Below are positions 9,129 to 12,404 of a stretch of DNA of 21,692 bases, piece after piece. Within the stretch, counting starts at the first letter, position 1; each line of letters opens with the position of its first letter. The stretch is from a virus. Its lineage: Duplodnaviria; Heunggongvirae; Uroviricota; Caudoviricetes. The notes beneath the pieces are model-generated. The model was not told the DNA's origin and ran no database searches. It was given only the letters and a program-made list of their open reading frames with translations. The stretch lies in IMG/VR virus record IMGVR_UViG_2562617086_000013, one strand, 5' to 3'. The position numbers were made by a program, and so were the translations under genes.

Positions 9129-10135
9129 GTGTCTCAACCACTTTCGGAAATATTGACATGGGATGATGAACAATGGGAGGTATTTGTCCATGATTGGCTT
9201 ATTGTCTGTAAATCAGATGATTACCCGTGGAGCGAACGTTTGGGAGGAGCTGGAGATAAAGGTAGAGACGTTGTTGGATATAAATCGGATCCTAACGTAG
9301 AAGGTTATTCTTGGGATAATTATCAATGCAAACTGTACAAAAAAAGTTTAGGGTTCTCTGATGTTGTAGTTGAGTTTGGAAAACTTATCTATTTTACTCT
9401 GAATGGTGATTATCCCATCCCTCAGAAGTACTTTTTTGTGGCACCCTATGATTTATCTACTACATTTTCTAATTTATTGAAAAATAAAAACGAGCTTAAA
9501 AAAGCAGTCCTTGATTCATGGGATTCAGCAATTTCAAAAAAATAACTAAAAAGATTGATATTCCATTAGATGATGAAATAAAAAAATATATTGAGGATTT
9601 TGATTTTAGTATTTTTTACTCTCTACCCTTATCATTGATTTTAAATGATATTGCAAATACACACCTTTATTTTAAGTACTTTAACGAGCTGTATGTCGTG
9701 AGAATCCCTCCAAATGAAATTCCAACATACAATTCAAAAAAAGAGTCTGTATATGTTAATGCACTGCTTCAAGCCTATTCAGAGCATGGAAATAAAACTT
9801 ATAGTTCTTTCTTAGAGCTTGATGATCCATACAGACGACACTTTAATAATAGTAGAAATGATTTTTATTTTGCATCTTCGCTTGAGGTTTTTGTCCGCGA
9901 AGTATTTAAAGATGATGTATTCAAAGCATTGAAATGTTACATTTCATCTTCAATTGAACCCGTCTTTTATGAAGACCATAATTATGCATTTATTAGGTGT
10001 AATGCAGTCTTGAAGCAGGCTGTTCTGACACCAATTGCACATTCAGTACTATCAAAAATATGTGAAGCAAATGATAAAAAAGGAATATGCCATCATTTGG
10101 TTAATGATGGTGAAGTAATTTGGACGGTGAGATAA
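9129..10135 (+). pseudogene. defence-system effector candidate: N-terminal Mrr/Cap4-like PD-(D/E)xK nuclease domain plus C-terminal domain (LmuA-like); apparently frameshifted in an A7 run at 9536-9542
   Basis: GTG start with AAGGAG RBS 3 nt after the int stop; ..ERLGGAGDKGRDVVGY..WDNYQCKLY.. fits the GDxGxD ... QCK restriction-endonuclease motif. Frame 0 stops at 9543-9545, while the same protein continues in the -1 frame (ORF 9518-10135); one extra A would join them. Confidence 0.6.
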
Positions 10136-10593
10136 TGGTTAGAATTTATAATTCAAGTTTAGAAGTGGCATGTCGAATGGCGAAAGTGCTCGTCGCTATT
10201 TATCCTTCTTCATTAAGCCTTGAACGGCTTATTTGTTTTGATTTTATTTTAGTAAATCTTAAGGATTTTTTACCTGAAGAGATTAGTCTTCATCCTCCAA
10301 TACCCCGTAGAGATGCTCAGTTAGCCCTAAAACGAGAGATTGTTTTAGAATCATTGGCTTTGTTGCAAGGCTATGAACTAGCCTCAAAAATTTATACACA
10401 TCGTGGTTTTGTATATAAAGCTTCTGAAAAAACATATGCATTTACAAATTCTCTACATAATGAATATGTTGCGCAGATGGAGCATAATATAAATTTGGTG
10501 GTTAAGTTATATAGTGATATTCCTGATGAGCAGTTGCAATCAATTATAAAAAATAAAATTGGCAAATATGATATGGAATTTAATTATGAATGA
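10135..10593 (+). CDS. small alpha-helical-looking protein (about 152 aa); candidate middle component (LmuC / ABC-3C MC-like)
   Basis: ATG at 10135 overlaps the upstream stop (TAATG); stop overlaps the ATPase start; size and position between nuclease and ATPase. No sequence motif recognised, so the assignment is positional. Confidence 0.45.
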   Translation: MVRIYNSSLEVACRMAKVLVAIYPSSLSLERLICFDFILVNLKDFLPEEISLHPPIPRRDAQLALKREIVLESLALLQGYELASKIYTHRGFVYKASEKTYAFTNSLHNEYVAQMEHNINLVVKLYSDIPDEQLQSIIKNKIGKYDMEFNYE

Positions 10594-12404
10594 CAATTTT
10601 TTTACGTTCAGAAAAATAAAGGTAACCGGATTCAATAAATTAGATGCTATAATTGAATTTGGTTCTAAATTGACTATTTTATATGGTGGTTCTGACTCTG
10701 GAAAAACATACATATATTATTTGATTCGATATTTATTAGGGAGTGAAAAACTAAAAAATAAAGATATCGATCATGCTCAAGGTTATGATTTAGCCTATCT
10801 GGAATTTAATTTTCAAGGTAGGGTAATGACAATTGAGAGGTCTCTTCAGGATAGCGCCCATTACAGATTATATGATTCGAGTATTGAAAATGTTAGTGAA
10901 GCTAATCTGTTGATGGTTTTTTCCAAAAGTGCTTCGTCTAAAAAGAGTTTTTCATCATACTTTTATGGTAGGTTGAATTTCAAAGAGGCTAAAGTAAGAA
11001 CAAACTTAAGTAATACTCTTCATAAATTTAATCTTAATAATGTTTTTGAATTTTTTTGTATTGATGAATTAAGAGTGTTAACTGAGAAGTCGTTAATTCT
11101 TTCTGATATTCCTAGCGAGGAGACAAAAAGAAAGTCTGAATTTAAATTCCTTTTAACTCAGAGAGATGATACTAACTCCTTAGCAGAAAAACCAAATAAA
11201 AAAGCAAGATATTTTTAAAAAAATCAAATTGCAAATATTTATGAGGAATTGAAAGCGCAATTAATTTATCCTGAATATGATCAAGTCATTGTTTCAAGAG
11301 AACTTGAGAAAGTAGAGCAAGATATTGAATCATCGAAAGATATATTGAAAGGTATTGTTGATGCACTTGATGATAAGAAGCAATTATTAAAAGAGTTAAG
11401 TGATGAATTATATTCAATCAGTGACAGGGAAAAATACTTATCATTACTCATTGAAAGATTTAGTCTTCTTAAAGACCAATACTTTATAGATCTACAAAGA
11501 ATAGATGTTGTATCACAGGCGAATTTCTATTTAAATAATTTTGCAGATATTTATTGTGAGTTCTGTAATACACCGCAAAAAAAGAAAATGAAATATCATA
11601 TGATGATTGTTTTTTGTCGTGTAATGCAGAAAAATTGAAAATCAAAAGCCAGCTGAAAGGATTAATTGAATCAATCGGATCTAATGTTCGCGAACATGAA
11701 TTAATTATGTTAAGAAAAAATGATGTTAATGAAATTTATCAATCAGAAAAAAGTGATTTTAAGACGTTAGAAGATAAAAATATAAAACAATACATTCATC
11801 TCTTGAATCACTTTATGAATATAAAGACAATCTTTTAATGGATCACACAAAACATAGCATTCTATCTTCATTACAAGATAAAGAAGATGATGTTGACGAA
11901 CTTAAATACTCCGCCGAGGACTTTGACTCCTTAACAGTAGCTGATTTGTATGATATAGAAATAGCGATGCAAGACTTTTTGAATGATATAAATTTTGAAA
12001 ATTCTAAAGATAACAAAGTGCGATTTGACGAAGATACATATGACTTTAATATCAATGGGAAACGCCGAGGAATGTTTGGTAAAGGTACCCGTGCAGTAAT
12101 GCATGCTATATTTACCATTTGCTTTGCGGAATTTTTATCAAGAAAAGGGAATCCATTCATTGGATTTGTTGTGCTTGATAGTCCATTAGTGACGCACTTT
12201 GATAAAGATAGAGGGGGTTCTCTATCGGATGTTAATAGCGTCAGTCTCAGTGATTCATTTTATCACGCATTAATCAAAAGGGACTATAATTTCCAGATTG
12301 TAATTCTTGAGAATAAAGGTCCGACGTTCCAAATAAAAATTAATGATGCAAATAAAATCCATAACTTAAATAAGAATGGAAGCTCTGGTTTTTATCCTGT
12401 TTAA
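10586..12404 (+). pseudogene. SMC/ABC-type coiled-coil ATPase (LmuB / ABC-3C ATPase-like), about 606 codons, disrupted: in-frame TAA at 11216-11218, -1 frameshift in A7 at 11577-11583, possible second shift at T4 11833-11836
   Basis: N-terminal head FTFRKIKVTGFNKLDAIIEFGSKLTILYGGSDSGKT (Walker A); long charged heptad-like middle; Cys cluster CEFC..(x15)..CFLSC across the frameshift; C-terminal head with ..GKGTRAV.. and Walker B-like IGFVVLDSP. The four track ORFs (10559-11218, 11249-11638, 11614-11838, 11838-12404) are collinear pieces of one gene. Confidence 0.6.

Follow-up and report, generated by a model that had tools for sequence, protein, structure and literature searches.

What has happened to the cargo of a P4-like satellite carried by Escherichia coli O157:H7 is the question raised by IMG/VR virus record IMGVR_UViG_2562617086_000013, a stretch of 21,692 nucleotides which we refer to as the window. 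Between the satellite integrase gene (int) and its delta, psu and sid genes the window holds three AT-rich genes (Table 1). An earlier note, made from the letters of the window, had described this module as seemingly inactivated and had offered three readings: genuine decay or silencing, slipped-strand phase variation, and homopolymer under-calling in the assembly. Comparisons with orthologs and with complete E. coli genomes confirm that lmuA and lmuB are broken, with the same lesions in hundreds of complete assemblies, and they argue strongly for the first reading. The cargo is very probably a Lamassu operon in the defense hotspot of a P4-like satellite, undergoing genuine and progressive pseudogenization in the O55:H7/O157:H7 clone. 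A functional Lamassu can probably not be made from the E. coli locus.

Family scans with PADLOC, Pfam and NCBIfam were run on the conceptually joined and repaired products of the open reading frames (ORFs). Judged by homology, the cargo is a predicted short (type II) Lamassu operon, also named an ABC-three component (ABC-3C) operon, in the order lmuA-lmuC-lmuB. The labels effector and ATPase given earlier hold, and can now be refined to an LmuA of Mrr/CTD6 type and the LmuB of Lamassu, with an MC2-type LmuC between them. Repaired LmuA matched the PADLOC LmuA profile (8.4e-89, profile positions 10-333 of 336) and Pfam CTD6 (PF20282, 2.1e-29, well above the gathering score), and it aligned without gaps to homologs of 334-337 aa, which were found in Xenorhabdus, Aeromonas, Serratia and Yersinia. 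Its Mrr-like motif, GAGDKGRDV...YQCK, is invariant across 12 aligned homologs, and some of the aligned homologs carry PF04471 (Mrr_cat). LmuC, which has the same length as its Proteus and Pantoea orthologs, matched Pfam MC2 (PF20288, 5.4e-30, also well above the gathering score) and PADLOC LmuC (2.9e-36).

Repaired LmuB matched PADLOC LmuB (2.6e-115, profile positions 3-608 of 610). Walker A (GSDSGKT), coiled coil and zinc hook (CxxC) can all be recognized in it, and the elements GSDSGK, C324, C327, GKG.R and DSPL are conserved with 34 homologs. Every component expected of a Lamassu system, that is, an LmuA effector with its C-terminal domain, LmuC and LmuB, is therefore recognizable by homology, while lmuA is split into ORFs of 138 and 205 aa and lmuB into ORFs of 210, 129, 74 and 188 aa. 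None of the three cargo proteins was matched by NCBIfam, and a sequence search of the PDB found no solved structure related to an Mrr-CTD6/MC2 Lamassu. The genes are tightly packed: lmuA starts at a GTG 4 nt past the int stop, with the Shine-Dalgarno sequence AGGAG, the lmuC start overlaps the lmuA stop (TAATG), and the end of lmuC overlaps the start of lmuB.

Intact orthologs made it possible to place each lesion. LmuB orthologs of exactly 606 aa are present in Proteus mirabilis (86% identity) and Pantoea alhagi (74%), at loci with nucleotide identities to the window of 89% and 78%, respectively; the Pantoea locus has the same position in a P4-like satellite, beside proBA. Aligned with the Proteus and Pantoea DNA, the coding DNA of the window shows exactly three one-base gaps (9535/9536, 11576/11577 and 11775/11776). 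After four edits, namely three 1-nt insertions and one substitution, the genes measure 1008, 459 and 1821 nt and align without gaps to both orthologs, giving LmuA, LmuC and LmuB products of 335, 152 and 606 aa. Since the lmuA gene calls in Pantoea alhagi and Proteus were short (201 and 145 aa), recurrent inactivation of lmuA in these hosts was considered, and then rejected; translation gave intact proteins of 335 aa from GTG starts (loci L007 and L009 of our comparison).

The earlier count of three -1 lesions and one nonsense codon holds, with one of the sites moved. As the earlier note reported, the effector stops at 9543 after a run of seven A (A7) and continues in the -1 frame, which we found to be open to 10135, a distance of 197 codons. 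At a stop rate of 0.079 per codon in the local DNA (28-35% GC), the chance of such a continuation is about 9e-8. Since the two LmuA fragments also tile the PADLOC LmuA profile (10-140 and 141-333), these are broken genes rather than chance ORFs. The orthologs read TCC AAT AAA ATA and TCA AAG AAA ATA at this site, and SKKITKK of repaired LmuA aligns with SKKITT and SKKISK in homologs. Whether the ancestor had A8 here or, like Pantoea, TCA AAG AAA, a single base has gone missing.

Two of the lmuB lesions were also confirmed where they had been proposed. The nonsense codon is TTA (Leu) in LSU61, 493/89, O55:H7 strains including DEC5D, and Proteus, and the A7 run at 11577 is A8 in EDL933, LSU61, O55:H7, ERL04-3476 and Proteus. 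A possible further shift had been suspected in the T4 run at 11833, but the T4 stretch of intact Pantoea orthologs is identical to that of the window (CTTTTAATGG / AATCTTTTAATGGAT). Lengthening this run to T5 does yield a 606-aa product with a good profile score; alignment to ortholog DNA put the deletion farther upstream, in the A5 run at 11776, where repair gives LEDKKYKTIHSSLESLYEYKDNLLMDH compared with LEGKKYKKIHLLLESLYEYKDNLLMDY in Proteus.

Alleles were counted with short site-specific queries against 309 E. coli records from complete assemblies. Of 5,426 complete E. coli genomes, 309 have the locus, in every case with an identity of at least 99%, and the carriers listed all belong to the O157/O55:H7 group. 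A sensitive blastn search over the same 5,426 genomes found no second or intact copy of the cargo elsewhere. Species-representative genomes contained no relatives of the locus, phage records were likewise without a match, and all matches in JGI metagenomes had A7. The stretch around the lmuA lesion is the same in every one of the 309 records, and those around the A5 run at 11776 and the nonsense codon are nearly as uniform. The A7 run at 11577 is a minority allele, and all nine of the non-identical records listed there have one extra base (A8).

These counts bear directly on the possibility that homopolymer under-calling faked frameshifts in intact genes. All three indels do fall in A runs, and one IMG/VR assembly, IMGVR_UViG_2923272612_000005, has A8 in lmuA. 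On the other hand, identical calls come from hundreds of independent complete genomes and many laboratories, the TAA is a substitution and not an error of run length, and the alleles are nested by lineage. The dissenting IMG/VR assembly is itself the noisy sequence. It is O55:H7-like, was the only A8 DNA found, and carries 27 indels together with errors beside GATC sites, all within the AT-rich cargo. It resembles a long-read assembly that has not been polished, and such data can falsely repair or break homopolymers; we rejected its A8 as a true intact allele. An artefact thus has a practically negligible probability. The earlier note would have taken A8 or TTA in orthologs as a sign of assembly errors. 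We did find A8 at 11577, TTA at 11217 and an lmuA open across its site in orthologs and sister strains, but these show the ancestral state, not an assembly error. Lesions that recur across hundreds of independently assembled complete genomes and are nested by lineage point to genuine decay, which of the three readings proposed earlier is the one that stands.

The second of those readings was phase variation, in which the homopolymers would act as reversible ON/OFF switches of a costly defense system, as in contingency loci. Run lengths do vary between strains at 11577 (A7/A8) and at 11747 (A5/A6/A7), intact Proteus lmuB also has an A8 run, and the A8-type LmuA protein is found on 434 contigs. 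The cargo is in this respect like phase-variable loci, which have coding A/T runs with length polymorphism among isolates. It is unlike them in that none of its alleles restores the whole operon and that a nonsense substitution is among the lesions. The lmuA ON allele is found in 0 of 309 records, lmuB is broken at 11776 in every E. coli allele seen, and the TAA, which slippage cannot revert, lies in a stretch shared by 295 of 309 records and is confined to typical O157:H7 instead of being scattered over lineages. The variable runs never toggle an otherwise intact ORF among close relatives, they are not conserved in the Pantoea ortholog, and a functional operon would need three or four independent reversions. 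With lmuB disabled by a nonsense codon and one or two frameshifts, we consider phase variation very improbable. Run-length polymorphism of the cargo is what is expected of neutral slippage in a pseudogene.

Genuine decay, in turn, proceeded in steps. Two one-base deletions, in lmuA at 9536 and in lmuB at 11776, came first, in the common ancestor of all carriers. The least decayed E. coli state carries these two lesions alone and a 417-aa LmuB fragment; it was found in locus L014 and on 127 contigs. The change from TTA to TAA came next, probably on the branch to typical O157:H7. Ten of the 14 records which differ at this codon have TTA, and these are eight O55:H7-type strains, the O157 strain 493/89 and LSU61. 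We take 493/89 and LSU61 to be early-branching O157 lineages in the stepwise model of O157:H7 evolution from O55:H7; on that view, the branch leading to typical O157:H7 is where the TAA originated. The slip from A8 to A7 at 11577 is probably the youngest lesion, in a sublineage that includes the window.

Other strains acquired additional slips or insertions independently. The A6 run at 11747 is a slippage hotspot, with A5, A6 and A7 found across five O55:H7 and O157 loci (L003, L004, L005, L036 and L039): the run is A7 in LSU61 and ERL04-3476, and A5 in the O55:H7 strains DEC5D and CB9615. CB9615 has an extra slip from T7 to T8 at 11051-11057, and L039 has A5 at 10076-10081 in lmuA. A further IS3-family insertion sequence (IS) lies inside lmuB in some O157:H7 genomes (CM000662.1, our locus L016, and NZ_CP089270.1). 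Under relaxed selection, the mutations may have arisen by slippage during replication of the A/T runs with which this DNA of 28-35% GC is densely set.

Relaxed selection is consistent with the substitutions. Ratios of nonsynonymous to synonymous substitution rates (dN/dS) of the three cargo genes between genera are 0.06-0.12. Among five E. coli alleles, 10 of 13 single-nucleotide polymorphisms are nonsynonymous and 3 synonymous, an excess with a binomial probability of 1.8e-4 had purifying selection at an omega of about 0.1 persisted. Repaired LmuB has nevertheless lost none of the 43 positions with at least 95% conservation among 34 homologs, which suggests that decay began recently and that the disabling lesions make up most of it to date.

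Some observations do weigh against a uniformly dead locus. Conservation of these LmuB residues fits recent inactivation and would, taken alone, also fit a gene still under selection. The exact A8-restored LmuA protein on the 434 public contigs, found in a collection of 15 billion proteins, means that intact lmuA alleles exist somewhere. Partial proteins which read through the lmuA site with 99-100% identity are labelled Salmonella enterica, and rare E. coli lmuA revertants are possible. Conceivably, part of the 434 contigs come from E. coli revertants in which the nuclease would be made in free form, its LmuB partner being absent. No fully repaired LmuB of the O157, O55 or LSU61 type was present in the same collection. 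Salmonella entries for a 188-aa LmuB C-terminus were considered as a sign that lmuB broke first and were discarded; Pantoea alhagi has this ORF annotated too, although its 606-aa ORF is unbroken. Nor is the partial protein P0204 informative on this point, since it begins past the lesion.

A broken lmuA could still be read if -1 ribosomal frameshifting or transcriptional slippage on A_AAA_AAA at 9536 produced some full-length LmuA. A runs are slippery sites, the heptamer lies in register with the 0 frame, and reading on in the -1 frame gives the native C-terminal domain. However, the RNA downstream has no stimulatory structure (minimum free energy -5.6 kcal/mol, z = +0.86, with 164 of 200 shuffled sequences folding at least as well), while the frameshift element of the insertion sequence in the window scored 121 bits, so that the method does detect such elements. 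The orthologs are all single ORFs in which the A run is interrupted. The register thus agrees with a programmed -1 frameshift, but neither RNA structure nor ortholog conservation does. Since lmuB is dead, LmuA alone would form no Lamassu complex in any case, and recoding appears highly unlikely.

Pseudogenization may have been neutral throughout, or its first step may have been favored. In published Lamassu systems, LmuB2-LmuC keeps monomeric LmuA sequestered and inactive until DNA ends or phage replication origins or intermediates are sensed, whereupon LmuA is freed, assembles into active tetramers and cuts DNA (PMC12663957; bioRxiv 10.1101/2025.03.14.643221). The systems studied are toxic at high expression, respond to plasmids and sense lambda replication origins (same sources). 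By analogy, extrapolating from Cap4-CTD7/MC3 systems, the intact cargo would presumably have worked in the same way. An abortive-infection nuclease of this kind could have been harmful in the lineage, through autoimmunity or through conflict with its many lambdoid prophages and pO157, with everything past the first hit being neutral decay. The known toxicity, plasmid triggering and sensing of lambda origins would agree with such selected loss, as would the early and fixed hit in the effector; defense pseudogenes are reported to be rare in P4 satellites, so that keeping a dead system is unusual (PMC13586616).

Recurrent independent inactivation, on the contrary, was not seen. In Proteus and Pantoea the genes are unbroken and evolve under strong purifying selection, and the A runs in which the first hits fell are mutable sites where neutral slippage is to be expected. 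Selected loss of a harmful nuclease is accordingly an explanation that we regard as possible but unlikely. That the loss was a selected and permissive step for the O55:H7/O157:H7 lineage is somewhat more doubtful still. If true, it would mean that a Lamassu firing on lambdoid origins and on plasmids was incompatible with gaining and inducing many Shiga toxin (Stx) and lambdoid prophages and with keeping pO157.

The setting of the cargo is clear from its neighbors. The window matches E. coli O157:H7 strains M1300706001A, F7386 and 149 at 100% over its full length and is, on this identity, a chromosome segment of E. coli O157:H7. It contains a lambdoid prophage remnant, an AraC-family gene and the satellite, which can be classed as P4-like from its gene content, confirmed by the C4 and isrK RNAs. 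The satellite backbone enclosing the cargo spans 12814-19028, from delta to alpha. With cargo between int and delta/psu/sid, and alpha and C4 present, the locus has the layout of the P4-like satellite defense hotspot, and two Pantoea satellites (L008 and L009) have the same order int-lmuACB-delta-psu-sid-alpha.

Neighboring genes had been described as intact, which is only partly so: the satellite integrase is split by an insertion sequence. The int pieces flanking it are the prefix and suffix of the intact 1182-nt int of strain TR01, and 'IS3-like element IS1203 family transposase' is the annotation found in the best matches to the whole window. Many other O157:H7 genomes, TR01 being an example, have an intact int. 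The insertion is strain-specific and has probably immobilized the satellite.

Table 1. Features of the window. The last column gives, for the stretch queried around each site, the numbers of E. coli records identical to and differing from the window (n = 309).
Feature	Position	Strand	Description	Query: identical / differing
lmuACB cargo	9129-12404	+	AT-rich, GC 27-35%	
lmuA pseudogene	9129-10135	+	335 aa if one base restored; Mrr-like PD-(D/E)xK N-domain and CTD6	
lmuC	10135-10593	+	Intact, 152 aa; ABC-3C middle component MC2	
lmuB pseudogene	10586-12404	+	SMC/Rad50-like ABC ATPase; 606 aa after three repairs	
Lesion 1, lmuA	9536-9542	+	A7, one base lost; -1 frameshift, TAA at 9543-9545	81 nt: 309 / 0
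Lesion 2, lmuB	11216-11218	+	TTA (Leu) to TAA, in-frame nonsense	95 nt: 295 / 14 (10 of them TTA)
Lesion 3, lmuB	11577-11583	+	A8 to A7; -1 frameshift just past the CxxC zinc-hook motif	81 nt: 66 / 243
Lesion 4, lmuB	11776-11780	+	A6 (Proteus) to A5; last gap against Proteus and Pantoea DNA	91 nt (includes T4): 306 / 3
Polymorphic A run, lmuB	11747-11752	+	A6, the in-frame ancestral length (A6 in Proteus)	83 nt: 288 / 21
T4 run, lmuB	11833-11836	+	Native, not a lesion; about 55 nt downstream of 11776-11780	
int	6631-9125	+	P4-type tyrosine integrase of the satellite; interrupted by IS1203/IS629	
IS1203/IS629	7163-8473	-	IS3 family, 1.31 kb, inside int	
ALIL frameshift pseudoknot	8009-8125	-	Of the IS3-family element; 121 bits	
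delta, psu, sid	12814-14392	-	RefSeq annotation of identical locus	
isrK and C4 RNAs	15658-15891	+	P4 immunity region; isrK Hfq-binding, C4 antisense; Rfam, C4 84 bits and isrK 72 bits, both above gathering scores	
alpha	16638-19028		Primase-helicase; RefSeq annotation of identical locus	
318-aa ORF	19161-20117	-	AT-rich; far end of the satellite, between alpha primase and host LysR gene	

At the far end of the satellite, the 318-aa ORF gave no match in Pfam and PADLOC scans and could be a second cargo gene. The lambdoid remnant, at 1-4500 of the window and 1-6312 of locus L001, includes cI/cro/cII-like genes, a frameshifted replication gene, tail-fibre genes, the pin invertase and a truncated GIY-YIG gene. 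With several annotated pseudogenes in this remnant, decay affects the whole neighborhood and not the cargo alone. In E. coli O157 AR-0428 the satellite locus lies on a 46.9-kb record counted as a plasmid (NZ_CP044147.1), which is probably an unplaced chromosomal contig.

The decay itself is biologically ordinary, and the finding is real and well resolved; its consequences are felt mainly in annotation. In RefSeq, the Prokaryotic Genome Annotation Pipeline (PGAP) presents the lmuA and lmuB fragments of five loci (L001-L005) as six ordinary coding sequences without a pseudogene flag, and flags other frameshifted genes nearby as pseudogenes. The fragments are named 'hypothetical protein', 'AAA family ATPase' and 'ABC-three component system protein', and lmuC is named as 'middle component 2'. 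Every fragment alone still matches the LmuA, LmuB or LmuC profile strongly, and defense-finding software probably counts the pieces as live genes. In a 2026 preprint that surveys 32,252 O157:H7 genomes, a 'common Lamassu-family system' is described along with a 'distinct' one from a strain of clade 8.3. We infer that these two systems are probably the dead locus and its A7/A8 alleles, in which case O157:H7 defense repertoires are likely overstated by one system.

The lesions may also prove useful. Being nested (two ancestral, then TAA, then A7), they are simple ordered markers for the steps from O55:H7 to O157:H7. Four edits suffice to rebuild the ancestral operon, with which an Mrr-CTD6/MC2 Lamassu could be tested cleanly, as could its compatibility with Stx phages. 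According to a 2026 survey, which favored the swapping of intact systems, fewer than 1% of P4 pseudogenes resemble defense genes (PMC13586616). The locus is unlike the picture from this survey, in that a dead system has been kept throughout the radiation of a clone, with the satellite int disrupted by an insertion sequence in some strains. It provides a counter-example, a defense system decaying in place within a P4-like satellite.

Among known systems, the closest comparison is with the short (type II) Lamassu that have been studied, DdmABC of V. cholerae and LmuACB of Salmonella. The cargo resembles them in its three-gene lmuA-lmuC-lmuB order with overlapping stops and starts, in an SMC/Rad50-like LmuB with Walker A, coiled coil and CxxC, in a small LmuC, and in an LmuA that combines an N-terminal nuclease with a C-terminal ABC-3C domain. 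ABC-3C (Pfam CTD1-12 and MC1-8) is a computational name for the same systems and adds no functional content. The cargo differs from the studied systems in that its lmuA and lmuB are pseudogenes, and also in its domains: an Mrr-like effector with CTD6 and an LmuC of MC2 type stand against the Cap4/CTD7/MC3 type of the characterized Lamassu. From this domain composition, the cargo appears to represent an uncharacterized Mrr-CTD6/MC2 subtype of the Lamassu/ABC-3C family.

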